Shown here piece after piece: positions 3,242-45,185 of a stretch of 45,185 bases of DNA. This DNA is from Escherichia phage LL11, in sequence record NC_048064.1; one strand, written 5' to 3'. The notes under the pieces were generated by a model. The model was not told the DNA's origin. It worked only from the letters and a program-made list of their open reading frames with translations, and searched no databases. The position numbers were made by a program, and so were the translations under genes. How positions within the stretch are numbered: the stretch's first letter is position 1; each line of letters begins with the position of its first letter.

Positions 3242-5869
3242 ATGCAAGACCTACACGCTATTCAACTTCAACTTGAAGAAGAAATGTTTAACGGCGGTAT
3301 CCGTCGCTTTGAAGCGGACCAACAACGCCAGATTGCATCCGGTAATGAATCTGACACGGCATGGAATCGCCGCTTATTGTCCGAACTAATCGCACCTATG
3401 GCGGAAGGTATTCAGGCTTATAAAGAAGAGTACGAAGGAAAGCGCGGTCGTGCACCACGTGCATTGGCTTTCATTAACTGCGTAGAAAATGAAGTGGCAG
3501 CATATATCACGATGAAAATCGTTATGGATATGCTGAACACGGATGTAACCTTGCAGGCTATAGCCATGAATGTAGCTGACCGCATTGAGGACCAAGTACG
3601 TTTTAGCAAGCTGGAAGGTCACGCCGCCAAATACTTTGAGAAAGTTAAGAAGTCGCTTAAGGCAAGTAAGACTAAATCATATCGCCATGCGCACAACGTA
3701 GCGGTCGTGGCTGAGAAGTCAGTAGCGGACCGTGACGCTGATTTCTCTCGCTGGGAGGCGTGGCCTAAAGATACCTTGCTACAAATCGGTATGACCTTGC
3801 TAGAAATACTGGAAAATAGTGTATTCTTCAATGGTCAGCCTGTCTTTCTTCGCACCTTGCGCACTAATGGTGGCAAGCATGGCGTTTACTACTTACAGAC
3901 TAGCGAACACGTGGGTGAATGGATAACTGCATTTAAAGAGCACGTAGCTCAGCTGAGTCCAGCCTATGCGCCTTGCGTTATTCCTCCTCGTCCGTGGGTT
4001 TCTCCGTTTAATGGTGGCTTCCATACCGAGAAGGTGGCGAGTCGTATTCGTCTGGTTAAAGGAAACCGCGAGCACGTCCGCAAGTTGACCAAAAAGCAAA
4101 TGCCAGCGGTTTACAAGGCTGTTAACGCTTTGCAGGCGACTAAGTGGCAGGTTAATAAAGAGGTTTTGCAGGTAGTAGAGGACGTTATCCGTCTCGACCT
4201 TGGTTATGGTGTGCCTTCCTTTAAACCACTCATCGACCGTGAGAACAAGCCAGCTAATCCAGTGCCGTTAGAGTTCCAGCACCTGCGAGGCCGTGAACTT
4301 AAAGAGATGCTAACGCCGGAACAATGGCAAGCCTTCATCAACTGGAAAGGCGAATGTACCAAGCTGTATACCGCTGAAACTAAGCGCGGCAGCAAGTCGG
4401 CGGCAACCGTTCGCATGGTCGGGCAGGCCCGTAAATACAGCCAGTTTGACGCAATATACTTCGTGTATGCACTGGATAGCCGTTCGCGCGTTTATGCGCA
4501 ATCTAGCACGCTCTCGCCGCAATCAAACGACTTAGGCAAGGCATTGCTCCGTTTTACCGAAGGGCAGCGTCTTGATAGCGCTGAGGCGCTTAAGTGGTTT
4601 TTGGTGAACGGGGCGAATAACTGGGGCTGGGATAAGAAAACTTTTGACGTGCGTACCGCTAACGTGCTGGATGGCGAATTTCAAGACATGTGCCGCGACA
4701 TTGCAGCCGACCCGCTGACCTTCACTCAATGGGTAAATGCTGATTCCCCTTATGGCTTCCTTGCATGGTGCTTTGAATATGCGCGTTATCTGGATGCACT
4801 GGACGAAGGAACGCAAGACCAATTCATGACGCACCTACCCGTCCATCAAGATGGTAGTTGCTCTGGTATCCAGCACTATAGCGCGATGTTACGAGATGAA
4901 GTAGGTGCGAAAGCAGTAAACCTTAAGCCTTCTGACTCCCCTCAAGATATTTATGGCGCGGTTGCGCAGGTTGTTATCCAGAAGAATTACGCCTACATGA
5001 ATGCAGACGACGCAGTGACTTTCACATCCGGAAGCGTCACACTTACAGGTGCAGAACTGCGTAGCATGGCTAGTGCGTGGGATATGATAGGAATCACTCG
5101 CGGCCTGACCAAAAAGCCCGTAATGACACTACCTTATGGCAGCACACGTCTAACCTGCCGTGAGTCAGTGATTGATTATATCGTTGATTTAGAAGAAAAA
5201 GAGGCCCAACGGGCTATTGCGGAAGGGCGTACCGCCAATCCTGTACACCCTTTTGATAATGACCGTAAAGACAGCCTGACACCTAGCGCAGCTTATAACT
5301 ATATGACAGCTTTAATCTGGCCTTCTATTTCGGAAGTGGTTAAAGCTCCTATAGTGGCAATGAAAATGATTCGTCAGCTTGCCCGTTTCGCAGCTAAAAG
5401 GAATGAAGGCCTAGAGTATACCCTGCCTACTGGCTTCATCTTGCAACAAAAGATTATGGCGACAGATATGCTCCGCGTATCTACTTGCTTGATGGGAGAA
5501 ATCAAGATGAGTCTACAGATTGAAACGGACGTAGTGGATGAAACGGCTATGATGGGCGCTGCTGCTCCTAACTTTGTGCATGGTCATGATGCCAGTCACC
5601 TTATCTTAACGGTCTGCGACCTTGTTGATAAAGGGATTACATCTATCGCAGTAATTCATGATTCTTTTGGCACTCATGCAGGCCGTACAGCCGATCTACG
5701 CAACAGCTTAAGGGCAGAAATGGTGAAAATGTATCAAGGCCGTAATGCACTGCAAAGCCTGCTAGATGAGCACGAAGAACGCTGGTTAGTTGATACAGGA
5801 ATCCAAGTACCAGAGCAAGGGGAGTTTGACCTTAACGAAATCTTAGTTTCAGACTATTGCTTCGCATAA
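3242..5869 (+). CDS. single-subunit DNA-directed RNA polymerase (SP6/K1-5 type)
   Basis: 875 aa; N-terminus [32 protein letters not shown]... and motifs [17 protein letters not shown] and [10 protein letters not shown] match my memory of SP6 RNAP; AGGAG RBS; cognate promoters throughout the window. Confidence 0.97.
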
Positions 5870-5877
5870 TATTAATA

Positions 5878-5907
5878 GGCCATTCCTTCGGGAGTGGCCT
5901 TTCTTTT
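5878..5907 (+). terminator. rho-independent terminator after the RNAP gene
   Basis: GGCCATTCC-TTCG-GGAGTGGCC stem-loop (UUCG tetraloop) followed by TTTCTTTT. Confidence 0.7.
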
Positions 5908-5942
5908 ACCGACTACCTGTAACATTTCATTAACATAAACGT

Positions 5943-5958
5943 GTCTCACACGTGAGAC
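5943..5958 (+). repeat. hairpin palindrome GTCTCAC-NN-GTGAGAC (family copy 1)
   Basis: GTCTCACACGTGAGAC immediately upstream of promoter 5961. Confidence 0.7.
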
Positions 5959-5960
5959 TT

Positions 5961-5983
5961 ATTTACCGGACACTATAGGATAA
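5961..5983 (+). promoter_or_regulatory. phage RNAP promoter (ATTTACCGGACACTATAGGATAA)
   Basis: Match to the window consensus ATTTACTGGACACTATAGAAGAG; first promoter downstream of the RNAP gene. Confidence 0.7.
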
Positions 5984-6123
5984 CCGTCGGAGACGGAGAG
6001 AGAAGGGAAGATAAGGATATAAAGGAAGTAATAGGTATTAAAGGTTATATAGGTTTACCTAGGAATACCTATTACCTTCTTCCTTCCTCTTATTACTACT
6101 TAGAGGAAGGGCAGACCTAAGTT
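5984..6123 (+). other. structured AT/purine-rich region between tandem phage promoters; candidate primary replication origin
   Basis: Inverted repeat GGAAGTAATAGGTATT ... AATACCTATTACCTTCC, purine-rich arm GGAGAGAGAAGGGAAG facing pyrimidine-rich arm CTTCTTCCTTCCTCTT, small hairpin CCGTCGGAGACGG; flanked by promoters at 5961 and 6145. Confidence 0.35.
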
Positions 6124-6139
6124 GTCTCACATGTGAGAC
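6124..6139 (+). repeat. hairpin palindrome (family copy 2)
   Basis: GTCTCACATGTGAGAC, perfect 16-bp palindrome, just upstream of promoter 6145. Confidence 0.7.
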
Positions 6140-6144
6140 TTCGT

Positions 6145-6167
6145 ATTTACCGGACAGTATAGATAAG
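6145..6167 (+). promoter_or_regulatory. phage RNAP promoter variant (ATTTACCGGACAGTATAGATAAG)
   Basis: Consensus match except C to G at -5; upstream of the gp1.1-like ORF. Confidence 0.5.
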
Positions 6168-6192
6168 ACTAACTTACTTTGGAGATTTAACC

Positions 6193-6321
6193 ATGCGTAA
6201 CTTTGAGAAGATGACCCGTAAAGCTAACCGTTTTGACATGGAAGAAGGGCAGACGAAAGGCAAGAAGCTGAATAAACCTGTCCGTGACCGTGCATCTAAA
6301 CGCGCAGCGTGGGAGTGCTAA
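6193..6321 (+). CDS. gp1.1-like small basic protein (42 aa)
   Basis: MRNFEKMTRKANRFDMEEGQTKGKKLNKPVRDRASKRAAWEC resembles T7 gp1.1 as I remember it; GGAGA RBS. Confidence 0.65.
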   Translation: MRNFEKMTRKANRFDMEEGQTKGKKLNKPVRDRASKRAAWEC

Positions 6322-6324
6322 GTT

Positions 6325-6762
6325 ATGGAGATATGGATGCCAGTGCTAGGGCATGAATCCTACCACGTATCAAACCTAGGCCGTGTACGAGGAAAGAATG
6401 GTAAAATCCTTAAAGCAGGCTATGCAAGAGGTTACTTAAATGTTGTATTAGACAACAAGACGTACCCTGTTCATAGACTTGTGGCTTTATCTTTCGTAGA
6501 CGGTTACGCACCTGGGTTGGTTGTCAATCATATAGATGAATGTAAACATCATAATTTTGCATTTAATTTAGAATGGGTGACACAAGCTGCTAACGTAGAA
6601 CACAGTTTGGCAACAGACTTTGTAGTGCTCGACCCTGCTGGCGTAAAATATAAAGGGCGCAACGCCTCACGATTTGCACGAGAACACGGTTTATGCCCTC
6701 GCACTTTTCGTAAAATGTTGGCTGGTCAAATTTCTCACCATAAAGGTTGGACTAAAGTATGA
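6325..6762 (+). CDS. HNH homing endonuclease (paralog 1 of 3)
   Basis: 145 aa; N-terminal MEIWMPVLGHESYHVSNLGRVRG, HRLVA motif, NH...H..N HNH core, C-terminal HHKGW; paralogous to 10030-10509 and 44079-44540. Confidence 0.8.
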   Translation: MEIWMPVLGHESYHVSNLGRVRGKNGKILKAGYARGYLNVVLDNKTYPVHRLVALSFVDGYAPGLVVNHIDECKHHNFAFNLEWVTQAANVEHSLATDFVVLDPAGVKYKGRNASRFAREHGLCPRTFRKMLAGQISHHKGWTKV

Positions 6763-8747
6763 GCATTATTCAAAACGTTGGTTGTCCTGAGTGCATGAAG
6801 AACAACCACGATAAATCGCAGAACCACTTGATGATTTTCTCCGACGGGGCTGGTTACTGCAACCGTGCACACTTCCATGATAGTGGCAGACCATACTACC
6901 ATAAGCCCGAAGGTGGCATCGAGATAACCGAGTTGCCTATTACTGGCAATATCAAATACACACCTTCTCAATTCAAAGAGATGGAGAAGGAAGGGAAGAT
7001 AAGCGACCCTAAGCTACGCGCCATCGCTCTTGGTGGTATGCGTATGAAAGATCGTTGGGAGGTCATGAATGAGCAAGAAAGGGCAGACCAAGAAGCAGAG
7101 TGGAAACTTGATGTTGAATGGTTCCTCACGCTTAAGCGTAAGAACCTTGTTTCCAGACACATTCGCGGCGACATTTGCGCATTGTATGATGTACGTGTCG
7201 GACACGATGAAGAGGGTAGAGTCTCGCGGCATTACTATCCACGCTTCGAGAAAGGTGAGCTAGTAGGAGCTAAGTGTCGCACATTACCTAAAGACTTTAA
7301 GTTTGGTCATTTAGGTAAACTCTTTGGTATGCAAGATCTTTTCGGTATGAATACTTTGTCTCACGTGTTAGACAAGGGGAGACGAAAGGATTGCTTGCTT
7401 ATTGTGGGTGGGGAACTGGATGCGCTAGCAGCGCAGCAGATGCTCCTTGATTCTGCCAAGGGTACTAAGTGGGAAGGTCAACCTTACCATGTATGGTCTG
7501 TTAACAAAGGGGAGTCTTGCCTTGAAGAGATTGTGCAGAACCGTGAACACATCGCCCAATTCAAGAAGATTATTTGGGGCTTCGATGGGGATGAGGTAGG
7601 GCAGAAGCAGAACCAGCAAGCGGCTCGCCTGTTTCCTGGCAAATCCTATATCCTTGAGTACCCTTCTGGTTGCAAAGATGCCAACAAGGCATTGATGGCT
7701 GGCAAGGCTAAAGAGTTTGTTGATGCATGGTTTAATGCCAAGTCATCTGATGAAGTCTTTGGTAGCCAGATTAAATCTATCGCATCTCAAAGGGATAAGC
7801 TCAAGGCTGCACGTCCAGAGCAAGGACTATCATGGCCTTGGCCTAAGCTGAACAAGGTAACGCTAGGTATTCGTAAGAACCAGCTTATCATTATAGGTGC
7901 AGGCTCTGGTGTAGGTAAGACTGAGTTCCTTCGTGAAGTAGTTAAGCACCTCATTGAAGAACACGGTGAATCTGTAGGCATCATTTCTACAGAAGACCCG
8001 ATGGTCAAGGTGTCCCGTGCTTTTATCGGCAAGTGGATTGATAAGCGTATTGAGTTACCGCCAACCAACGACCCGAAAGAAGATGGATACCGTGAGGTGT
8101 TCGACTACACCGAGGAAGAAGCTAACGCCGCCATTGATTATGTAGCTGATACAGGTAAGCTGTTTGTGGCTGACCTAGAGGGTGACTATTCGATGGAAAA
8201 GGTAGAGCAAACTTGCCTAGAGTTTGAGGCTATGGGCATTTCTAATATCATCATTGATAACTTAACGGGGATTAAATTAGATGAGCGTGCTTTTGGTGGG
8301 AAGGTTGGTGCACTTGATGAATGCGTCAAGCGGATTGGTACTATCAAAGACAGACATGCAGTTACTATATTCCTTGTATCACACCTTACACGTCCTCCGG
8401 CAAACCGTACCCAACACGAAGAAGGTGGCGAGGTTATCCTTTCTGACTTCCGAGGCTCAGGAGCTATCGGATTCTGGGCATCTTACGCCTTGGGGATTGA
8501 GCGTAACACAAGAGCTGAAACGCTTGATGAAAGAACTACCACGTACATCTCATGTGTCAAAGACCGCGACCAAGGTATCTGGACTGGAACCAAGGTCATG
8601 CTTAAGGGTGACATTCAAACCGGACGTTTAATGGAACCACAAGCCCGTACTAAGTCATTTGATACAGGTGAAGCAAGGCAACAAGAAGTGCCTGATTTAC
8701 CGGACACTATAGAAGAGACTAACTTCGATGAAGAAAGTGAGTTTTGA
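6759..8747 (+). CDS. DNA primase/helicase (T7 gp4-like)
   Basis: 662 aa; N-terminal zinc motif CPEC...C..AH, Walker A GAGSGVGKTE, DnaB-like C-terminal half; acidic C-terminus ending ...EESEF. Confidence 0.9.
   Translation: MSIIQNVGCPECMKNNHDKSQNHLMIFSDGAGYCNRAHFHDSGRPYYHKPEGGIEITELPITGNIKYTPSQFKEMEKEGKISDPKLRAIALGGMRMKDRWEVMNEQERADQEAEWKLDVEWFLTLKRKNLVSRHIRGDICALYDVRVGHDEEGRVSRHYYPRFEKGELVGAKCRTLPKDFKFGHLGKLFGMQDLFGMNTLSHVLDKGRRKDCLLIVGGELDALAAQQMLLDSAKGTKWEGQPYHVWSVNKGESCLEEIVQNREHIAQFKKIIWGFDGDEVGQKQNQQAARLFPGKSYILEYPSGCKDANKALMAGKAKEFVDAWFNAKSSDEVFGSQIKSIASQRDKLKAARPEQGLSWPWPKLNKVTLGIRKNQLIIIGAGSGVGKTEFLREVVKHLIEEHGESVGIISTEDPMVKVSRAFIGKWIDKRIELPPTNDPKEDGYREVFDYTEEEANAAIDYVADTGKLFVADLEGDYSMEKVEQTCLEFEAMGISNIIIDNLTGIKLDERAFGGKVGALDECVKRIGTIKDRHAVTIFLVSHLTRPPANRTQHEEGGEVILSDFRGSGAIGFWASYALGIERNTRAETLDERTTTYISCVKDRDQGIWTGTKVMLKGDIQTGRLMEPQARTKSFDTGEARQQEVPDLPDTIEETNFDEESEF
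8695..8717 (+). promoter_or_regulatory. phage RNAP promoter inside the 3' end of the helicase gene
   Basis: ATTTACCGGACACTATAGAAGAG. Confidence 0.65.
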
Positions 8748-8767: not shown

Positions 8768-8785
8768 TGTCTCACATGTGAGACA
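8768..8785 (+). repeat. hairpin palindrome (family copy 3)
   Basis: TGTCTCACATGTGAGACA, 21 nt after the helicase stop. Confidence 0.7.
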
Positions 8786-10509: not shown

Positions 10510-13042
10510 TTGGAAAGAATTTGGAAAGAATCGCATACTTGTCATGGATGCTGAAAGTAAAGGTTTGCTTGATGCCATACGCTATGGTCATCGTGAAGAT
10601 GTGCACATCATTTGCTGCATGGACTTGCTCACCACGGAGGAGTTCCTATTCTTCGACCCATATGAGATGCGTGACCCTGAGGCAAGGGAACGCCTGAAGG
10701 AGTGGGAAGGCCATCAAGACGGAACCTTGGTTGATGGTGTTAACTTCCTGAAGCATTGTGAAGCTATTGTGTCACAGAACTTCCTAGGATATGACGGTCT
10801 TCTCTTTGAGAAAGCATTCCCTGATATCTGGAAAGGCTTTAATTATACCGAGAAGCGCGGCAAGGGCAGACTCCGTGCCGACCTGTGCCCTATCCGTGTT
10901 GTCGACACGCTGGTGATGAGTCGCCTGTTAAACCCCGATAGACGCCTTCCTCCGCAAGCATATGCCAAAGGTATGGGTAACGTCACCCCTCACTCAATTG
11001 AGGCGCACGGCATCCGTATAGGTCGCTATAAACCGGAGAACGAGGACTGGTCTAAACTAACTGACCACATGGTTCACCGTGTACGTGAGGACGTGGCGAT
11101 TGGTCGTGACTTGTTCCTCTGGCTCTTTAACGGGGAATGGATGGAGCACAAACGCCGTGGCGTGAATAAACGCACGGGCCTAGGCATTGAGACAGCCTTC
11201 CACATGGAGTCCATTGTGGCGCTGGAGATGAGCCGTCAGGCCGAGCGCGGGTTCCGTCTGGACATCGACAAGGCTTTGGCCCGATGCGAAGAATTGGACG
11301 CTAAGATTGATGAGACAGTCGCAGCGTTCCGCCCTCACATGCCTATGCGTATCAAGTCTAAACCTTTTAAACCGGAAGAAAAGAATGAAGTATGCCAACG
11401 CGCAAATGAGTATGGAGCTAGCAACAATATACCTACTGTCCTTGACCCCTCACACTTTCTTCATGCCGAGAGACGAGGAGATCGCAAGACAGTATGGAGT
11501 GTCACTACTAAGTCTGGTGATTGGTCGGCTAGTGTCAAGAAAGACTTTCCTCACCTTAGAGGAAACCGTAATGACACGCCAAGTATCAAGTGGATTGGCG
11601 CTTACTCGCCTGTTACTTTCGAAGAGATTCCCTTGGGTAACAGGGATACAGTTAAGCAAGTGCTCTATGATTATGGATGGAAAGGTGTTGAATTTAACGA
11701 TACCGAGCAAGCGCATCTCGATGAGCACGGAGTGTTACCCAAACCTTGGAGTGGTAAGATAAATGAAAAGTCCCTTACTTTATGGCAAGAAAGAGCCGCA
11801 CGTGAAGGTAAAACAGTCCCTGATTGGTGCTTGGGTATCGCTGCATGGTACATACTCGTATCCCGTCGTGGTCAGATACTCAACCGTGGTGACGTTGAAG
11901 CCTTCAACGAGAAGGGAACGTGGCCCTCGCAGGCTGGTGTACGAAAGTGTCGCGGCCTTGTACCTGTAGCATTCAACAAGGAGCTAGGAATCAATGCGCA
12001 GCAATACTACGAGAGGTACGGATGTTGGCCTACGTCTGACAAAGATGACGGAGAGTGGCGTGTTCCAGCTGTTGCTATTAGCATTGGCACTTCTACGTTC
12101 CGTATGCGTCATCGTAACGTGGTCAATATTCCTGCCCGTGGCTTGTATCCTTTACGTGATTTATTCATAGCAGGGAAAGGCAAGCTAATCCTTGGTTGTG
12201 ACGGTGCAGGTCTTGAACTGCGTGTCCTGTCTCACTTCATGAATGACCCTGAGTACCAAGAGATTGTACTGCACGGTGATATTCATACGCATAACCAGAT
12301 GAAGGCTGGTCTTCCTAAGCGTGATATGGCGAAGACGTTTATATACGCCTTCCTCTATGGCTCTGGTATAGCCAACCTTGCAGCAGTATGTGGTGTTACT
12401 GAGGAAGAAATGAAGGAAGTTGTGGCAAGATTCGAGATTGAACTGCCGTCTCTTGCACGTCTTCGTGAGAATGTTATCGCACAAGGTAACAAGTTTGGCT
12501 ACCTGCAAGCACCTGATGGGCATTGGGGTCGCATCCGCATGTCTGGTGGTGAACTTAAAGAGCACACGATGCTTAACGTATTACTCCAGATGACTGGCTC
12601 TTTGTGTATGAAATATGCATTAGTCAAGGCATTTGCAGTAATGCGCAAGGAAGGTGTAGCCTTGGATGCTATGGGAAATCCTTGTGGTGTGGCTAACGTG
12701 CATGATGAAATCCAGATGGAAGTTCCTGAAGAGGAGGTCTTGTATCTTAACTACGACCTACCTTTCACCTTAGAGGGGTTCGAAACAGAGAAGGCTGCCG
12801 TGCAAGCAGTGTTCGATGCAGAGGAGAAACGTGTTCATGTGGATTCTGAAGGACGTATGTGGTCTGCTGCAAACCTCGTTAGTGTTGATGCTGATGCTGG
12901 TGTATTGCATTGCCAGCGCCGTTATCACCGTGCAGGTCATATCATTGCCGACGCCATGACTTGGGCAGGGCAGTATCTGAAGATGCGTTGCCCGATGGCA
13001 GGCGAATATAAGATTGGCGCAAGTTGGAAGGAAACACACTGA
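10496..13042 (+). CDS. DNA polymerase (family A, T7 gp5-like)
   Basis: 848 aa; motifs GLELRVLSHFM, GDIHTHNQ, KTFIYAFLYGSG, HDEIQMEV correspond to T7 DNAP pol motifs; N-terminal exonuclease region with acidic residues. Confidence 0.93.
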   Translation: MLDVDWKEFGKNRILVMDAESKGLLDAIRYGHREDVHIICCMDLLTTEEFLFFDPYEMRDPEARERLKEWEGHQDGTLVDGVNFLKHCEAIVSQNFLGYDGLLFEKAFPDIWKGFNYTEKRGKGRLRADLCPIRVVDTLVMSRLLNPDRRLPPQAYAKGMGNVTPHSIEAHGIRIGRYKPENEDWSKLTDHMVHRVREDVAIGRDLFLWLFNGEWMEHKRRGVNKRTGLGIETAFHMESIVALEMSRQAERGFRLDIDKALARCEELDAKIDETVAAFRPHMPMRIKSKPFKPEEKNEVCQRANEYGASNNIPTVLDPSHFLHAERRGDRKTVWSVTTKSGDWSASVKKDFPHLRGNRNDTPSIKWIGAYSPVTFEEIPLGNRDTVKQVLYDYGWKGVEFNDTEQAHLDEHGVLPKPWSGKINEKSLTLWQERAAREGKTVPDWCLGIAAWYILVSRRGQILNRGDVEAFNEKGTWPSQAGVRKCRGLVPVAFNKELGINAQQYYERYGCWPTSDKDDGEWRVPAVAISIGTSTFRMRHRNVVNIPARGLYPLRDLFIAGKGKLILGCDGAGLELRVLSHFMNDPEYQEIVLHGDIHTHNQMKAGLPKRDMAKTFIYAFLYGSGIANLAAVCGVTEEEMKEVVARFEIELPSLARLRENVIAQGNKFGYLQAPDGHWGRIRMSGGELKEHTMLNVLLQMTGSLCMKYALVKAFAVMRKEGVALDAMGNPCGVANVHDEIQMEVPEEEVLYLNYDLPFTLEGFETEKAAVQAVFDAEEKRVHVDSEGRMWSAANLVSVDADAGVLHCQRRYHRAGHIIADAMTWAGQYLKMRCPMAGEYKIGASWKETH

Positions 13043-13256: not shown

Positions 13257-13297
13257 GTTATACTCAAGGTCACTTACGAGTGGCCTTTATGAATAAC
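13257..13297 (+). promoter_or_regulatory. conserved stop-adjacent element GTTATACTCAAGGT-hairpin-GCCTTTATGAAT (copy 1)
   Basis: Identical 14-nt 5' box and 12-nt 3' box as at 31217-31260, flanking a different hairpin (GGTCACT-TACG-AGTGGCC). Confidence 0.5.
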
Positions 13298-13324
13298 TTA
13301 TTCCTACTTATTTTGTCTAACATG

Positions 13325-13347
13325 ATTTACTGGACACTATAGAAGGA
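13325..13347 (+). promoter_or_regulatory. phage RNAP promoter
   Basis: ATTTACTGGACACTATAGAAGGA; leader hairpin CCTAGACAATCTAGG follows. Confidence 0.75.
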
Positions 13348-13411
13348 AAGCCTAGACAATCTAGGTTTATAAGGTAGTATAGGTAATTAAGTAAATATAG
13401 GAGAGATAAAT

Positions 13412-13789
13412 ATGTCTATGGTAACTACTCTGGTATTCGTAGCTCAATACTTTCGTGGTCTTGCTAATAAGTTCAAGTCCAAGGCTATCAAAGCTATTGA
13501 GGCTCGCATCGAAGCAGTACAGTCAGAGCAAGTTAAAGTTGAAGAACATCGTAGTTCTCAAATGATTGACTGTCATAACCGCCACTATGCATCTCGTGAT
13601 GAACTAAATGCACGTCAAGTCAAAGAGGTAGAAGATATGCTGGCACGTCACCAGCAAGAGCGTGACAGCCTGAAAGCTGAATTTGAAGAGAACAAGGCAT
13701 CCATCGCCCTTGTACATCAAGCCGCATCTGACAGCCTGAAGAAAGAGATTGTTATGCTGGAAATTGAGTTAGACAACCTGACCAAATAA
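13412..13789 (+). CDS. hypothetical coiled-coil protein (125 aa)
   Basis: ORF track; AGGAGAG RBS; hydrophobic N-terminus then charged helical sequence. Confidence 0.5.
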   Translation: MSMVTTLVFVAQYFRGLANKFKSKAIKAIEARIEAVQSEQVKVEEHRSSQMIDCHNRHYASRDELNARQVKEVEDMLARHQQERDSLKAEFEENKASIALVHQAASDSLKKEIVMLEIELDNLTK

Positions 13790-28272: not shown

Positions 28273-31215
28273 ATGGCAATTGAACGTCAAGCTGTACAAG
28301 GTTTAGAAAGAGTACAGTCAAGGGTCGCGCCAACACCTATGTCTTTCACACCACGACAAGTGAGTATCTCAGGGGGCGCTGATGCCTCCGGTAGTAGATT
28401 TTTGGAAGACTTAGTAAACGCCGCAAGTAGTGTGGCTGATGTCACTACTGCTATCCTTAATCAGCAAGTAGAAGACGATAAGGTTCGCCAGATGGATAGG
28501 GCTTTGTCTGGCATGATGCCTTCTGAGGATGCCACGGTAGGCGGTGCTCGTGCTCATATGCTGGTTAGTTTACAAAATGATGTAATCTCACAGACAACTG
28601 CGCTACAAGCAGAAGCACAGCGATTTCAAGGTAGTGACGAGGATTGGGAAAACTATGTAGTTCAATCTCGTAATGAGGTACAAAATAGGTTATGGCAAAG
28701 TTATCCAGAGCTTCGTGGTGACAAAGATTCTATGAGGCTTGTCACTAACGCGTTCATGGAGCAGCAACCTAGAATTACTGCAACTAGAGCAGAGGCTAAA
28801 CTTCGTCAAGAAGAAGAAGCACGAATGCAATCTATGCAGTCTCGTATTATCATGGCTACAAGGGACGTAGCGCCAGATGCCACTGGTGCAGCTCTTATCC
28901 AGCTACAAAAAGAAGCACTGGCGATGGGTCTTAGTAAACCTGAGTTTGATCAAATGGTTGCTAAGATTGCATCTGAAAGAGCGGCAGTAGGAGATGATAG
29001 TCTTATTCAGGGAACCAAGGCATTGGTGGATGATAAGGGTGTCTCTTTGTATGACCGTGTTGGTGCTTTGCAAACTGGAGAAATTCAAGCTAACAGAACT
29101 TGGGCTGCTCAGAATCAGGTTGCCCTCTTCGAGAAGAAAGATGCAGCTATAAAGGCATTCGATGCAGGGCAACTTACTCGCGAAGAGTTACTTCAGGTGA
29201 TGCAGAATCACAATGAATTGACTGGTGGCACTGCTTGGTCTGATAGCGAGATCAAGGCTATCTTCGATAGGCAAGCTAAGGTTAATGCAGAGAAAGCAAA
29301 GCTAGAAGATCTTATTGCACGAGGTGAATCTGGGTCACCTTTAGGCTTACAGGACATTAGTAAGGATGACAGAAAGACATATGCTGAAGCCTTAGTTAGT
29401 ACCTACACTAAGCTGGCAGAAGATGAAATTGCCCGTACTGGTGCAACGGGAGAACAGGCTGAAGCTATTCGCGGTAGGTATGAGCAGATGCGTTATCTTA
29501 AATTGGGTCAACAGCTTATTGAAGACCCGATCATTAAGGAAAGGTATTCGTCGCTTATGCAGCTATCCTCTGCCAACCTCAAGGATATGAATGTTGAACC
29601 TGAAGCACTGCAAACTATCATGCGAGCACGTGATTCTATTCCAGAGGATGCACGTCGTGCTGTTATGGGAGACAAAGAATATGCCTTTGTTGAGAACTAT
29701 GACTTAGCAACTCGCATGGGGTATAACACAGGTCAAGCTATTGAGTTTGCACAGAATGCCTCTCGCGGCGAGAAATTACAAGGTTCTGTGCTCAAAGAAC
29801 TTAATGATGATGTAGATGGAGTAGTTAGTGACATTGCAGGAGGCAGCTGGCTCACTTTTGGTGATAACATGAGTGAAATGGGACGTGACATTATGATGGA
29901 GGAGGCAAGTACAATTGCTAGAGCAATGAAGGTTGCAGGCCATAATAATGACACTATTAAGCGTCACCTTAAATCCTACCTTACAAGCCAGTATACACAA
30001 TTATCAGAAGGTTTCTTTACTCAAGGTGTTCTTGTAAAAGGAGACATTCGTACGTTAGGAGATACTATAGGAGTAAACCAAGGAGACGTCCCAATTACTC
30101 TCCGTCAGTACCTAGATAATAACAAACAAGCCCTGCTAGATGCATCAGGTGGGTTAGAGGAAGGCGACCTATATTTTGATGTAGATGCGAAGCGCGGCCT
30201 CTTTACTATACGTGCAGGCTCTGGTCGTGTGCCTGTTACACAGGCAATGCCTTTGTCTGAAATCAAAGGGCAATCCTTGCTTAAGCAACGGTATGATGCA
30301 GAGGTTAAAGCACGTGATGAAGGGCGTAAGAACTTTGAAGCACAACAAATGCGAATGTGGGGCGCAGGTGGCTACCAAGCACAACCACCTGCAAAGACTA
30401 CAGCCAAAACTGTAGGCTCACGTGGGATTGCTGACTTCTTAATGTCACCTGCCTTTGCATCAGGCGAGAATCTACCAGCAAACTTTGAGTTCGGATATAA
30501 GAGAAATAATATGGACTTCTACAATTATGTAGCCAAGATGGAGAATAATGCCAATGTAGGTTTTGACCGAGTAGCTGGTGTTTATACACCATACAAAGAT
30601 GCACATGGTCAGTCTGTAGGGTACGGTCACTTCCTTACTACTGAAGAGAAGAAGAACGGATACATTATGATTGGTACAGAGAAAGTGCCATTCACTCCGG
30701 GACAATCTCAATTAACACCAGAACGAGCCATGCGCCTTCTACAGCAAGACTTGAAGGGTCATGTGCCAAGTACTTCAGGATGGGCTGTTCCCTTCGAAGA
30801 GATGCACCCAGGTGTTCAGCGTGGCCTTATGGACTTGTCCTATAATTTAGGAAAAAGCGGGATCCAGAATGCTCCTAAGGCATACGCTGCATTTAAGGCT
30901 GGCAAGTTTACTGATGGCTTCATCGAGATGCTATCTACTGCATCTACTGAAGGCAAGCGCAGCACTGGATTGTTAGTTCGTAGGGCGGAAGCTTATAACC
31001 TTGCACAGAGTGGTGGTGCTATCCCTAAGATTAGTGAAGTGGAGACACGAGCAGATGGATCTATGTATGTGAAGTTTGCAGGACAGATGTCAGAGGCTTT
31101 CGTAAATAAATCAATCTACAATCAGATTGGTAAGGATGGGTGGATGCAAGTGTATCCTCCAAAGCAAGGTGCACTTGCACCTGACACTCAGATTGGTAGA
31201 ATCAAACTGAGCTAG
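28273..31215 (+). CDS. internal virion protein B with C-terminal lysozyme-like (muramidase) domain
   Basis: 980 aa; C-terminal region VGYGHFLTTEEKKNGY ... GLMDLSYNLG has the look of a GH24 lysozyme-type domain. Confidence 0.75.
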   Translation: MAIERQAVQGLERVQSRVAPTPMSFTPRQVSISGGADASGSRFLEDLVNAASSVADVTTAILNQQVEDDKVRQMDRALSGMMPSEDATVGGARAHMLVSLQNDVISQTTALQAEAQRFQGSDEDWENYVVQSRNEVQNRLWQSYPELRGDKDSMRLVTNAFMEQQPRITATRAEAKLRQEEEARMQSMQSRIIMATRDVAPDATGAALIQLQKEALAMGLSKPEFDQMVAKIASERAAVGDDSLIQGTKALVDDKGVSLYDRVGALQTGEIQANRTWAAQNQVALFEKKDAAIKAFDAGQLTREELLQVMQNHNELTGGTAWSDSEIKAIFDRQAKVNAEKAKLEDLIARGESGSPLGLQDISKDDRKTYAEALVSTYTKLAEDEIARTGATGEQAEAIRGRYEQMRYLKLGQQLIEDPIIKERYSSLMQLSSANLKDMNVEPEALQTIMRARDSIPEDARRAVMGDKEYAFVENYDLATRMGYNTGQAIEFAQNASRGEKLQGSVLKELNDDVDGVVSDIAGGSWLTFGDNMSEMGRDIMMEEASTIARAMKVAGHNNDTIKRHLKSYLTSQYTQLSEGFFTQGVLVKGDIRTLGDTIGVNQGDVPITLRQYLDNNKQALLDASGGLEEGDLYFDVDAKRGLFTIRAGSGRVPVTQAMPLSEIKGQSLLKQRYDAEVKARDEGRKNFEAQQMRMWGAGGYQAQPPAKTTAKTVGSRGIADFLMSPAFASGENLPANFEFGYKRNNMDFYNYVAKMENNANVGFDRVAGVYTPYKDAHGQSVGYGHFLTTEEKKNGYIMIGTEKVPFTPGQSQLTPERAMRLLQQDLKGHVPSTSGWAVPFEEMHPGVQRGLMDLSYNLGKSGIQNAPKAYAAFKAGKFTDGFIEMLSTASTEGKRSTGLLVRRAEAYNLAQSGGAIPKISEVETRADGSMYVKFAGQMSEAFVNKSIYNQIGKDGWMQVYPPKQGALAPDTQIGRIKLS

Positions 31216-31216
31216 T

Positions 31217-31260
31217 GTTATACTCAAGGTTTGTCTCACATGTGAGACATGCCTTTATGA
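31217..31260 (+). promoter_or_regulatory. conserved stop-adjacent element GTTATACTCAAGGT-hairpin-GCCTTTATGAAT (copy 2)
   Basis: Same flanking boxes as 13257-13297; here the hairpin is the palindrome TGTCTCACATGTGAGACA (31232-31249, family copy 6). Confidence 0.5.
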
Positions 31261-31282
31261 ATGACATTAATTAGGAGGTAAC

Positions 31283-36532: not shown

Positions 36533-38430
36533 TGGCTAAGGCAAGAGAATCACAAGCAGAGGCTCTTGCCAGATGGGAGATGCTACAGGAGTTACAGCAG
36601 ACCTTTCCGTACACATCGGAAGGTTTGCTTCTCTTTGCAGACACAGTTATTCATAACTTGATTGCAGGCAACCCTCATCTGATTCGTATGCAGGCTGATA
36701 TCTTGAAGTTCCTATTCTACGGACACAAGTACCGCCTCATCGAAGCGCCTCGTGGTATCGCTAAGACAACACTATCAGCAATCTATACGGTATTCCGTAT
36801 TATTCATGAACCGCATAAGCGTATCATGGTTGTGTCCCAAAACGCCAAGCGAGCAGAGGAAATCGCAGGTTGGGTAGTTAAAATCTTCCGTGGCTTAGAC
36901 TTTCTTGAGTTTATGCTGCCGGATATCTACGCTGGGGACCGTGCATCCGTTAAGGCGTTTGAGATTCATTACACCCTACGTGGTAGTGATAAGTCTCCTT
37001 CTGTATCCTGTTACTCAATCGAAGCAGGTATGCAGGGTGCTCGTGCTGATATTATTCTAGCGGATGACGTAGAGTCGATGCAGAATGCTCGTACGGCAGC
37101 GGGCCGTGCCTTGCTTGAGGAACTGACTAAGGAGTTTGAATCTATCAACCAGTTTGGGGATATCATTTACCTTGGTACACCTCAGAACGTAAACTCTATC
37201 TACAACAACCTACCTGCTCGTGGTTACTCTGTTCGTATCTGGACTGCGCGTTACCCTTCAGTAGAGCAAGAGCAATGTTATGGCGACTTCCTTGCACCTA
37301 TGATTGTTCAAGATATGAAGGACAACCCAGCACTTCGCTCAGGGTACGGGTTGGATGGTAATAGTGGTGCACCTTGTGCCCCTGAAATGTATGATGATGA
37401 AGTCCTGATTGAGAAGGAAATCTCTCAGGGTGCTGCTAAGTTCCAGCTTCAGTTCATGCTTAACACTCGCATGATGGATGCTGACAGATACCCATTACGC
37501 CTGAACAATCTAATCTTCACCTCGTTTGGTACAGAGGAAGTCCCTGTGATGCCTACGTGGAGTAATGATTCCATAAACATCATTGGTGATGCACCTAAGT
37601 ATGGTAACAAGCCTACGGATTTCATGTACAGACCTGTAGCTCGCCCATACGAATGGGGTGCTGTCTCCCGCAAGATTATGTATATCGACCCTGCGGGTGG
37701 TGGTAAGAACGGAGATGAGACGGGTGTAGCCATCGTATTCCTGCACGGCACATTCATTTATGTGTATAAGTGCTTTGGTGTACCTGGCGGATACCGAGAG
37801 TCGTCCCTGAATCGCATTGTGCAGGCCGCAAAGCAGGCTGGTGTTAAAGAGGTATTCATTGAGAAGAACTTTGGTCATGGCGCGTTTGAGGCGGTAATTA
37901 AGCCGTACTTTGAACGAGAGTGGCCTGTAACTCTGGAAGAGGATTACGCCACCGGACAGAAAGAGTTGCGTATCATTGAGACGCTGGAGCCGCTCATGGC
38001 AGCCCATAGGCTTATCTTCAATGCAGAGATGGTGAAGTCAGACTTTGAGTCGGTACAGCACTATCCGCTTGAACTACGCATGTCCTACAGTCTTTTCAAT
38101 CAAATGTCGAACATAACGATTGAGAAGAACAGCCTCCGGCACGATGACCGCCTAGACGCCCTGTATGGCGCTATACGGCAATTAACTTCTCAGATAGACT
38201 ATGACGAGGTTACTCGAATTAATCGCCTCAGAGCGCAGGAGATGCGTGATTATATACAGGCGATGAATACACCTAGGCTTCGTCGGGCCATGCTGTACGG
38301 TGATTATGGTGATGAGCGAAGAACAACTAACACCTCTCTAGCGATGCAGCAGAGGGTTTACGGGCAGGACTACCGAAATAAATCGGCAAGCAGAAATACA
38401 CTTTCTGCAAGGATTTCAAGGACTTATTAA
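36532..38430 (+). CDS. terminase large subunit (gp19-like)
   Basis: 632 aa; ATPase N-terminal domain with Walker A-like APRGIAKT and nuclease C-terminal domain; AAGGAGG RBS. Confidence 0.93.
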   Translation: MAKARESQAEALARWEMLQELQQTFPYTSEGLLLFADTVIHNLIAGNPHLIRMQADILKFLFYGHKYRLIEAPRGIAKTTLSAIYTVFRIIHEPHKRIMVVSQNAKRAEEIAGWVVKIFRGLDFLEFMLPDIYAGDRASVKAFEIHYTLRGSDKSPSVSCYSIEAGMQGARADIILADDVESMQNARTAAGRALLEELTKEFESINQFGDIIYLGTPQNVNSIYNNLPARGYSVRIWTARYPSVEQEQCYGDFLAPMIVQDMKDNPALRSGYGLDGNSGAPCAPEMYDDEVLIEKEISQGAAKFQLQFMLNTRMMDADRYPLRLNNLIFTSFGTEEVPVMPTWSNDSINIIGDAPKYGNKPTDFMYRPVARPYEWGAVSRKIMYIDPAGGGKNGDETGVAIVFLHGTFIYVYKCFGVPGGYRESSLNRIVQAAKQAGVKEVFIEKNFGHGAFEAVIKPYFEREWPVTLEEDYATGQKELRIIETLEPLMAAHRLIFNAEMVKSDFESVQHYPLELRMSYSLFNQMSNITIEKNSLRHDDRLDALYGAIRQLTSQIDYDEVTRINRLRAQEMRDYIQAMNTPRLRRAMLYGDYGDERRTTNTSLAMQQRVYGQDYRNKSASRNTLSARISRTY

Positions 38431-38451
38431 TTACTGGACACTATAGAAGGA
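38429..38451 (+). promoter_or_regulatory. phage RNAP promoter overlapping the terminase stop
   Basis: AATTACTGGACACTATAGAAGGA. Confidence 0.75.
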
Positions 38452-38523
38452 AGGCCCAGATAATAAGAGAAAATAATAGGTAATATATAGGTTAACCTAG
38501 GTTATATAGGTATGCCTTAGTAT

Positions 38524-38543
38524 GGGTGTACTCCTGTACACCC
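38524..38543 (+). other. perfect hairpin GGGTGTAC-TCCT-GTACACCC in late leader
   Basis: 8-bp perfect stem with 4-nt loop, downstream of an AT-rich stretch that shares AGGTTATATAGGT with the origin-like region at 6042-6054. Confidence 0.4.
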
Positions 38544-38587
38544 TATTCCTTACTTCCTTACTATATTTACATAATAGGAGAGAGACA

Positions 38588-44640: not shown

Positions 44641-44822
44641 CTGAGGGAATCCGTCTTCGACGGGCAGGGCTGATGTACTCCTTGGATAGTACAAGGGAGG
44701 CCGAGGGAGCGCCTAGGACGGCCTAGGGAATGGCTTAGTGGTGGACAAGGTGATTACCTTAGTGAAGCCTCTTAGTGCATTCCTGAGGCTATTCAGGGCC
44801 ATTCCTGAGTGTTTGACAGGGT

Positions 44823-44850
44823 GGGGGAGGGGGGGGGGGAGGGGCGTGGG
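44823..44850 (+). repeat. G-rich tract with an 11-nt poly-G run
   Basis: GGGGGAGGGGGGGGGGGAGGGGCGTGGG in the terminal non-coding region. Confidence 0.8.
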
Positions 44851-44904
44851 CTATCTGTTCGTTTCGTTCACTCCGCTTGCGCTCCGTTCACTCGCTCACG
44901 TGTA

Positions 44905-45031
44905 CCTTAGGTTATTCCTTGATGGATAGCTTAGGTTAGCCTTAGTGGACTACCTTAGTTAAAGCCTTAGTGCTTAGCTTAGTATCAGCTTAGTAGTGTA
45001 CCTTAGTCAGACTTAGTGTCTTCTCTTAGTG
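44905..45031 (+). repeat. array of about 11 CTTAGT-type heptamer repeats in the terminal non-coding region
   Basis: CCTTAGG, GCTTAGG, CCTTAGTG, CCTTAGTT, CCTTAGTG, GCTTAGC, TTAGTA, CTTAGTAG, CCTTAGTC, ACTTAGTG, TCTTAGTG at irregular 8-13 bp spacing; further copies at 44757, 44769, 45174 and at 21, 57, 68; analogous to the CCTAAAG repeats at the T7 left end. Confidence 0.7.
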
Positions 45032-45185
45032 ATTGCACATGCAAGCATGTAAGATGCCATTAGGTCGCGGTCGGTAGACCGCTAAGAAGAGGTAATAGTA
45101 ATAAGATGCAGTAGGAGGAACACCAGAAACCTAGCCAACCTAGCCTATCCTAGCTCTGTATCTATTACTTTTCCTTAGTCTCACA

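Follow-up and report, generated by a model that had tools for sequence, protein, structure and literature searches.

A conserved module of promoter, hairpin and phased TAGGTA repeats behind the RNA polymerase gene of Escherichia phage LL11: a candidate replication origin of K1-5/SP6-like phages

Introduction

Where does DNA replication begin in the phages related to SP6 and K1-5? Members of this group are widely used, as sources of RNA polymerases and in phage therapy against encapsulated E. coli, Klebsiella, Salmonella and Proteus, and, as far as the searchable literature shows, their origin has apparently never been mapped. The question arises at a particular locus of Escherichia phage LL11 (NC_048064.1), the intergenic region between the gene for its single-subunit RNA polymerase (RNAP) and the next gene downstream. 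The LL11 genome, whose 45,185 bp form the window of this study, is a complete, circularly permuted Vectrevirus genome (K1-5/K1E-like, Molineuxvirinae), and the segment from 5500 to 6328, which includes the locus, is 95–99% identical to that of many Vectrevirus phages, K1-5 included. An earlier description made from the letters of the genome (the sequence-only reading in the following) had placed an origin-like structured region here, between two phage promoters.

The reference for such a locus is phage T7, in which replication starts at the promoters phi1.1A and phi1.1B, the primary origin, while phiOR and phi6.5 are secondary origins (PMC8373140). Plasmids with T7 origins require the inactivation of RNase H (PMC8373140), which is consistent with an RNA-DNA hybrid primer. 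Here, we describe a conserved module between the two LL11 promoters, P1 and P2, together with a smaller paralog behind the terminase gene. We consider this module the best candidate for the origin of the K1-5/SP6-like phage group. More specifically, we tentatively read the P1-P2 interval as a transcription-activated replication origin that corresponds, in the SP6 group, to the primary origin of T7, and would put the chances of this reading at slightly less than even.

Results

A phased repeat array between two phage promoters

The LL11 promoters enclose a tandem array of seven short units (site 1), whose AGG cores follow one another at spacings of 10, 9, 10, 9, 9 and 10 bp. It is the only chain of more than four units in LL11 on either strand, and the longest chain in 200 locally shuffled genomes has five; with seven copies, it also exceeds the minimum of three phased direct repeats of one motif that defines an iteron array. 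The unit consensus is WATAGGTART, and the AGG core is invariant in 39/39 units from six lineages. Nearly all of 24 distinct homologues, from E. coli, Salmonella, Klebsiella and Proteus phages and from IMG/VR contigs, have 5–8 chained units with a mean period of 9.0–9.7 bp; in the single exception, one core mutation leaves a 4-unit chain. In the motif scan of IMG/VR, two of the 15 matches (L020 and L028) are chance occurrences in unrelated DNA.

The module around the array is kept in every relative examined (Vectrevirus, Zindervirus, Ulipvirus, Acadevirus and distant uncultured relatives) despite changed promoter specificity, and the relatives that retain its order and content include some with 72–75% identity in the RNAP C-terminus. 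Within genera, 3 of 21 core columns are variable, compared with 14 of 50 in the spacers and 8 of 40 in the right arm described below, a difference that is weak, and phage ULINTec6 carries an exact 10-bp duplication of one array unit. Tandem units can grow by slippage, as this duplication illustrates, and copies of a palindrome that flanks the array are scattered round the genome, so one might regard the palindromes and repeats as functionless mobile or slippage junk and the resemblance to T7 as coincidental. This explanation is strongly disfavoured, and we consider it very improbable, given the retention of order and content in every relative, the invariant AGG cores, the compensatory changes in a hairpin next to the array and the paralogous array at a second fixed position.

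The promoters themselves were identified by counting exact matches to the pattern TTTACCGGACANTATAG over the whole LL11 genome, which holds 13 of them, compared with 0.35 expected. Two lie at 5962–5978 (P1) and 6146–6162 (P2), where the sequence-only reading had put its promoters (5961 and 6145). The structured segment that it had described between them, of about 140 bp, is there as well; the spacer from the P1 start site to P2 measures 166 bp. At the position of P1, all relatives have a promoter of their lineage's own specificity. P2, by contrast, is off consensus in every lineage examined, with G at -5 in Vectrevirus and Acadevirus and T at -1 in Zindervirus and Ulipvirus, a pattern which suggests that P2 has been selected to be weakened or specially regulated as a second promoter. 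Because P2 has a short leader of its own and P1 merely adds 166 nt of untranslated spacer ahead of it, transcribing the array would appear to be the job of P1.

In composition, the site 1 array is AT-rich, and purine-rich on the non-template strand. The GC content at 6000–6075 is 0.32, compared with 0.45 for the genome, which bears out the AT-rich core of the sequence-only reading. Of all 40-bp windows of the genome, 6011–6050 has one of the four least stable duplexes (top 0.02%), and 5995–6044 is the genome's most purine-rich 50-nt window (84%, non-template strand). Other promoter-proximal leaders also rank high in instability, so that an AT-rich stretch is a necessary mark of such an origin, not a specific one.

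The array is followed by a pyrimidine-rich right arm made of inverted copies of the unit. Together they form the long imperfect inverted repeat with purine-rich and pyrimidine-rich arms that had been noted earlier; its arms at 6022–6039 and 6064–6081 (I1) are 18 nt long and 89% complementary, and an outer inverted repeat (I3) pairs 5991–6009 with 6072–6090 (19 nt, 74%). While a purine-rich arm is thus present, the main feature of this arm is the direct-repeat array, which the sequence-only reading had missed.

Two further explanations of the units were considered and rejected. TAGGT is part of the SP6 promoter consensus, and the units might thus be RNAP-binding fragments of SP6 promoters; yet the array does not change between lineages whose promoters are quite different. 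Likewise, a sponge for a CsrA-type protein would need GGA, and most units in SP6 and in the Klebsiella and Proteus phages read GGU.

A covarying hairpin at the start of the P1 transcript

Between P1 and the array lies a 13-nt hairpin. Its sequence is identical in 25 of 33 homologues, across lineages that differ in promoter specificity, and in the remaining eight the central pair is altered on both sides together, from G-C to A-U, C-G or U-A, and never broken. Counted on 14 distinct rows, 70/70 cells are paired, a score that none of 500 shuffles reaches (0/500), and shifting the 3' partner abolishes the pairing. The central-pair changes arose more than once, since two of them occur in close Vectrevirus relatives. 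As the central position may be any base yet must stay complementary, the alignment speaks for a hairpin that truly forms, either in RNA or in single-stranded DNA. Given that the other ten positions are invariant, it also suggests that something reads the sequence of the hairpin.

We also considered its CCGTC motifs as divergent primase sites and dismissed this idea, because the SP6 primase recognizes GCA (PMC2965215). Separately, a sequence fitting the hairpin consensus, CCGTCGAAGACGG, is found close to the genome end at 44651–44663 (minus strand), and behind it comes a GC-rich chain of four AGG units spaced 10–11 bp apart (44694–44727); this element (44651–44727) may be a chance occurrence or a third related element near the terminus.

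Related arrays behind the terminase and DNA polymerase genes

The sequence-only reading had observed that a 13-mer of the interval, AGGTTATATAGGT, recurs behind the terminase gene. This recurrence is exact, with precisely two occurrences in the genome (6042–6054 and 38499–38511), and the second copy falls within a conserved second array (site 2). By itself, a single exact recurrence is weakly significant, as we estimate that about 0.3 would be expected for any 13-mer of the region; we regard it as real because both copies sit in AGG-repeat arrays just downstream of phage promoters. The 4-unit chain at site 2 is likewise not significant on its own, and its unit sequence is the same as at site 1. 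Sites 1 and 2 are the two densest TAGGT clusters of the LL11 genome, the least stable 40-bp window of the genome starts with the site 2 array, and the GC content at this array is 0.30. In SP6, the orthologue of site 2 has seven units (37792–37851), and chains of at least four units occur in the SP6 genome at sites 1 and 2 only; no such array chains were found in the T7 genome. Site 2 is kept in the four genera checked, represented by Vectrevirus, Zindervirus, a Klebsiella phage and Acadevirus. The GC hairpin downstream of its array has four stem pairs with compensatory double changes across genera.

A 3-unit mini-array (CTAGGTTTAT AAGGTAGTAT AGGTAATTA; site 3) follows the promoter at 13326, behind the DNA polymerase gene (13326–13416). 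In duplex stability, this stretch likewise ranks near the bottom of the genome.

Arrays of this kind could be phased binding sites on DNA for a host or phage protein that regulates P1 and P2, for example as a switch for class II (middle) transcription, or that shapes the DNA, with no role in replication. The 6-nt core TAGGTA, repeated 3–8 times, directly and in inverted orientation, with a period of 9–10 bp, would suit such a protein, as would the conservation of the core relative to the drifting spacers, the duplication of exactly one 10-bp unit in one relative and the non-consensus P2 of every lineage examined, which suggests special regulation. Yet no candidate binding protein was identified, and we know of no host-factor consensus that the TAGGTA motif would match. 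Furthermore, for a simple operator the position of the array, behind P1 and over 80 bp upstream of P2, would be unusual, and the array recurs after the terminase gene without a tandem promoter. Taken together, we regard a purely regulatory or architectural DNA element as quite improbable.

Synteny with the primary origin region of T7

The sequence-only reading had called the layout positionally equivalent to the T7 primary origin. The gene content takes this further: as an RNAP gene lies upstream and a gp1.1 homologue downstream, the region is, by homology of its neighbours, syntenic with the T7 segment gene 1 – phi1.1A/B – gene 1.1. The product of 6193–6321 is 59% identical to T7 gp1.1 (BLASTP, E=1e-13) and matches the Pfam family Phage_1_1 (PF08200) with 58.8 bits, compared with a cut-off of 21 (E=7e-16).

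The order of elements agrees in part. T7 has gene 1, phi1.1A (5848), the R1.1 hairpin, phi1.1B (5923), the AT-rich stretch and gene 1.1 (6007), whereas LL11 has the RNAP gene, a hairpin at 5877–5907, a palindrome, P1, the AT-rich array, a second palindrome, P2 and the gene 1.1 homologue. The layout claimed earlier, a promoter pair and then an AT-rich segment, is therefore that of T7, not that of LL11, where the AT-rich segment lies between the promoters. What is kept is the sub-order of R1.1-like hairpin, promoter, AT-rich segment and gene 1.1, with P2 as an extra, because the 5877–5907 hairpin shares the block GAGTGGCCTTT with R1.1.

In the alignment, this block is common to the 5877–5907 hairpin and to the R1.1 and R0.5 hairpins of T7. 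The hairpin is annotated as a terminator in the phages R4596 and Premi, and its stem varies across genera with compensation. In Vectrevirus, it looks like an R1.1-type hairpin that has been turned into, or doubles as, an intrinsic terminator.

Folding of the interval and the case for an RNA element

Compared with shuffled sequences, the P1-P2 interval folds with z-scores of -2.6 (plus strand) and -4.2 (minus strand), and plus- and minus-strand folds are equally good across lineages. The predicted fold of 6022–6081 has 17 pairs and a 4-bp extension, which would reach the helix length of about two turns expected of RNase III sites. A long imperfect hairpin is possible in every lineage, because the right arm consists of inverted copies of the unit, and its pairing register differs between lineages. 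A consensus RNA fold of this long hairpin has few covarying pairs, in an alignment that is unreliable in the repeats. The T7-type RNase III consensus (ACUCAAGG ... GCCUUUAUGA(U/A)U) was not found in 5940–6170 by a motif search that recovers the T7 sites R0.5, R1.1 and R6.5 and LL11 sites at 13283 and 31251. In Rfam 15, no family matches at its gathering score; the best hit, a miRNA-precursor model with 25.5 bits compared with a gathering score of 85, reflects a generic hairpin resemblance only.

These folds raise the possibility that the module works as RNA, as a structured 5' leader or a short non-coding P1 transcript, and not as an origin. Its 5' stem-loop, UAGGU repeats and complementary pyrimidine arm could then control the processing, stability or translation of middle-gene mRNA, the RNA could bind or titrate an RNA-binding factor, and the long hairpin could be the substrate of a double-strand-specific RNase. 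In line with this, the central pair of the 13-nt hairpin has been kept through all four Watson-Crick types, the GC hairpin of site 2 has its four compensated pairs, and the long hairpin folds in every lineage with z-scores of -1.2 to -3.6. Both arrays directly follow promoters on the transcribed sense strand, with sites 2 and 3 in true 5' untranslated regions, 5' stem-loops also follow most other LL11 promoters, T7 has its RNase III site R1.1 in the same intergenic region, and a palindrome hairpin with its U-rich tail could end an RNA of about 165 nt. The long hairpin fits less well, as it lacks the T7-type RNase III consensus that LL11 does have at 13262 and 31233, and the R1.1-like hairpin is the one at 5877–5907 instead. 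Its plus-strand fold is no more stable than the minus-strand fold, hardly any covariation shows up in the long stem when a consensus is folded, and Rfam has no match for it. Within Vectrevirus, moreover, some changes disrupt stem pairs and leave the AGG cores untouched, and a hairpin alone does not explain the strict 9–10 nt phasing of a 6-nt motif. On balance, we find it rather unlikely that the module serves as RNA in place of an origin, although this explanation deserves serious attention.

The palindrome family

A palindrome-family hairpin precedes each promoter, as the sequence-only reading had pointed out; that these hairpins are parts of the origin is another matter. LL11 has six perfect copies of the 16-nt palindrome and one near copy. 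At the orthologous positions, the SP6 palindromes read GTC(T/C)AAC-NN-GTTGGAC, with co-varied arms. The first hairpin is GTCCAAC-NN-GTTGGAC in SP6 and in the Klebsiella and Proteus phages, its symmetry kept, while the second is GTCTAAC-GT-GTTGGAC in SP6, with a U.G wobble on the plus strand, and is absent in the Proteus phages. In six of nine SP6 copies, a T stands opposite a G, which gives a U.G wobble in plus-strand RNA only. The LL11 copies at 8769, 9913 and 31233 have stems lengthened by pairs that include G.U wobbles, and form the upper stems of look-alikes of T7-type RNase III sites; the flanks of the copy at 31233 (ACTCAAGG ... GCCTTTATGAAT) match the T7 sites R0.5, R1.1 and R6.5. A further site of the T7 RNase III type, at 13262–13300, is free of the palindrome.

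Given these RNase III look-alikes, the co-varied arms and the plus-strand U.G wobbles, the family is best read as RNA hairpins for processing or stability. As members of a dispersed RNA-hairpin family, with wobbles and RNase III-like upper stems, the palindromes are probably not origin components. The two beside P1 and P2 have no RNase III flanks; behind each comes a U-rich stretch that runs into the promoter, and upstream transcripts may have their 3' ends at these hairpins.

The elements at 13262–13300 and 31215–31275 closely resemble T7 RNase III sites and have SP6 counterparts at ~12230–12270 and ~30550–30600, which suggests that T7-type RNase III processing signals are common to the T7 and SP6 groups. 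Another palindrome copy, at 7358–7373, is located roughly 200 codons into the primase/helicase gene, at the same place as in SP6 (7071–7086). It could be a site of RNA processing within the gene, for which the internal 4A/4B arrangement of T7 gene 4 offers a parallel.

Feature coordinates and surroundings

The coordinates of all features are collected in Table 1.

Table 1. Features of the P1-P2 region and of its paralog in Escherichia phage LL11 (positions in the 45,185-bp window)
Feature	Position	Strand	Details
Phage single-subunit RNA polymerase gene (T7 gene 1 equivalent)	3242..5869	+	875-aa open reading frame (ORF); annotated RNA polymerase in K1-5 and relatives
Terminator-like hairpin and T-run after the RNAP gene	5877..5907	+	Terminator scan: 10 pairs, 6 GC, then TTCTTTT
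Palindrome-family hairpin 1, GTCTCACACGTGAGAC	5943..5958	+	-35..-20 relative to P1
Phage promoter P1, TATTTACCGGACACTATAG	5960..5978	+	Exact pattern match; start inferred at G 5978
Hairpin CCGTC-GGA-GACGG	5984..5996	+	+7..+19 of P1 transcript; family consensus CCNTCGRAGANGG
Tandem array, 7 units of ~9.5 bp (site 1)	6002..6070	+	AGG cores 6004, 6014, 6023, 6033, 6042, 6051, 6061
Pyrimidine-rich, G-free arm with inverted unit copies (TACCTAT...)	6064..6100	+	Pairs with 6022-6039; 39-nt G-free run
Second small hairpin, CCTTCCTCT...AGAGGAAGG	6082..6110	+	Inverted repeat I4; centroid fold
Palindrome-family hairpin 2, GTCTCACATGTGAGAC	6124..6139	+	Upstream of P2
Phage promoter P2, TATTTACCGGACAGTATAG	6144..6162	+	Non-consensus variant, G at -5
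T7 gene 1.1 homologue, 42-aa basic protein	6193..6321	+	BLASTP to T7 gp1.1 and Pfam Phage_1_1
Phage promoter overlapping the end of the terminase large-subunit gene (T7 phiOR position)	38430..38446	+	Promoter pattern match
Second, paralogous array, 4 units (site 2)	38476..38515	+	AGG 38478, 38489, 38499, 38508; contains the 13-mer
GC hairpin GGGTGTAC-TCCT-GTACACCC, then pyrimidine-rich arm	38524..38561	+	Downstream of array 2

Downstream of P2, the gp1.1 homologue is followed by an HNH endonuclease and the primase/helicase. The endonuclease is encoded between the other two by a 145-aa ORF (6325–6762) of the NUMOD4 + HNH_3 homing type, which is missing from K1-5, while other relatives hold different insertions at this place.

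At the other end of the record, the true termini of LL11 lie somewhere in the last few hundred bases, where we noted 44823–44845 and 44900–45185; a long poly-G tract and many short CTTAGT repeats are found near the probable genome ends. When 45173–45185 (...CCTTAGTCTCACA) is joined to 1–16 (TGTTAGACAACC...), the junction yields a further palindrome-family copy, which matches SP6 position 493.

Discussion

How might the module start replication? Every functional step in this paragraph is inferred; what is observed are the anatomy and conservation of the module, its synteny with T7, the covarying hairpin and the ranks in composition and stability. The phage RNA polymerase would start at P1 (5978), transcribe the conserved 13-nt hairpin and then enter the 7-unit AGGTA array, a stretch that no other in the genome exceeds in purine content and that ranks among the easiest to melt. 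As the transcript would be rich in purines and its template in pyrimidines, a persistent RNA-DNA hybrid would be favoured, whose 3' end could prime the phage DNA polymerase in the rightward direction, and the displaced strand would allow the loading of the primase/helicase, which is encoded two genes downstream. The phased TAGGTA units, direct and inverted, may bind some factor or confer opening or hairpin properties on the DNA, and, as the counterpart of phiOR, the smaller array behind the terminase gene would serve as a second origin.

Several observations speak for this reading. A T7-type origin has a phage-RNAP promoter that reads into it, an AT-rich and easily unwound segment just downstream of this promoter, and a location between the RNAP gene and gene 1.1; in LL11, P1 reads into the array, the array is such a segment, and the interval occupies this location. 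Furthermore, both arrays lie directly downstream of phage promoters, at two positions equivalent to T7 origins, the module is conserved in every relative despite changed promoter specificity, and its composition is extreme.

Several points weigh against an origin of the T7 kind. Initiation mapping for any SP6-group phage was not found in the searchable literature, and Dobbins et al. (2004) are said, in a passage of PMC4837284, to suggest a bidirectional origin at the DNA polymerase gene. Since T7 origins need no specific repeats, the conserved cores and the hairpin would imply an extra factor. The covariation of the 13-nt hairpin and of the hairpin at site 2 would fit a role at the RNA level equally well, and the arrays at sites 2 and 3 lie in the 5' leaders of genes. 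The SP6 primase site is 5'-GCA-3' (PMC2965215), and this triplet has a single copy in 5978–6145, which lies outside the array (6111, top strand); it is kept in Vectrevirus and most Zindervirus, and is not found in BP12B or in the Klebsiella or Proteus phages, so that not all genera have it. GC skew, finally, lends no help: the cumulative skew rises monotonically, with a change-point at ~6–7 kb in LL11 and at ~5.9 kb in SP6, and we discarded it as an origin predictor, because the same test misplaces the known T7 origin (shift at 2.1 kb, not at 5.9 kb).

As a separate observation on the primase triplet, GCA and TGC together occur once in 5978–6145, compared with ~6.8 expected from the genome average, a deficit that is partly due to base composition.

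The extra factor could also be taken as the key to the system. The SP6 group would then, unlike T7, use a sequence-specific origin, in which the TAGGTA units and the CCNTCGRAGANGG hairpin are recognized by a dedicated licensing factor. Candidates for such a factor would be a protein of the phage or the host, or else the primase/helicase, which would then act on the displaced strand or the P1 RNA. The primary site would lie after the RNAP gene and the secondary one after the terminase gene, and the system would differ from the usual 'promoter plus AT-rich' origins of T7-like phages by its dependence on an initiator or a structure. We consider this version unlikely.

The array, the hairpin and the paralogous site are described in no searchable paper; the original SP6 and K1-5 genome papers (Dobbins 2004; Scholl 2004) are outside that scope and may already have likened the tandem promoters to T7. 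With the present analysis, a positional guess becomes a precise, testable module, consisting of a promoter, a covarying 13-nt hairpin, a phased TAGGTA array and inverted unit copies, and present at exactly two places where T7 has origins. If it is an origin, replication start sites of the T7-like kind can carry sequence-specific elements, and the module would offer a minimal cassette for phage-dependent plasmid amplification and for the engineering of these phages. If it is an RNA element, it would represent a leader motif of phage-polymerase transcripts that is conserved and hitherto undescribed.

Comparison with known systems

The closest known system is the T7 primary origin, which occupies the same slot and likewise has two tandem rightward phage promoters, a transcribed, AT-rich and easily melted segment (GC 0.27 in T7, compared with 0.48 for its genome) and, in LL11 just upstream, an R1.1-like hairpin. 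The AT-rich segment of LL11, however, lies between the promoters and that of T7 after both; LL11 has phased, sequence-specific units with inverted copies where T7 has an irregular AT-rich stretch, and the covarying 13-nt hairpin after P1 is without T7 counterpart. Of the two, T7 is the one with demonstrated origin function, and the LL11 module is a candidate.

The second site compares in a similar way with T7 phiOR. In both cases, a phage promoter directly after the terminase large-subunit gene (gene 19 in T7) is followed by a purine-rich and then an AT-rich stretch. The SP6-group site differs by its TAGGTA array, which phiOR lacks, and its conserved GC hairpin, and the LL11 promoter at site 2 also directly serves the next gene. 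With T7 R1.1, the long hairpin of LL11 shares an irregular shape, the same intergenic region and transcription from an upstream promoter. Unlike R1.1, 6022–6081 is without the ACUCAAGG...GCCUUUAUGA consensus, which LL11 carries at 13262–13300 and 31215–31275, and the sequence relative of R1.1 in LL11 is the 5877–5907 hairpin.

Outside the T7-like phages, the array recalls the iteron origins of lambda ori and theta plasmids, which also have short, helically phased repeats, direct and inverted, by or in an AT-rich region. Iterons are typically 17–22 bp long, whereas the LL11 units have only ~10 bp with a 6-nt core, and their 9.5-bp period is shorter than the helical repeat of B-DNA. Nor was an initiator gene identified among the neighbours, i.e. 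the gp1.1 homologue, the HNH endonuclease and the primase/helicase.

Finally, the module may be set beside the R-loop-primed origins, such as that of ColE1 with its RNA II and the mitochondrial LSP/CSB system, which is served by a T7-like RNA polymerase. The comparison is a mechanistic analogy only, with no sequence relationship. As in these systems, a promoter reads into a purine- or G-rich non-template stretch, and, judging from the composition of the LL11 interval, the structure of the nascent RNA could set the primer here as well.

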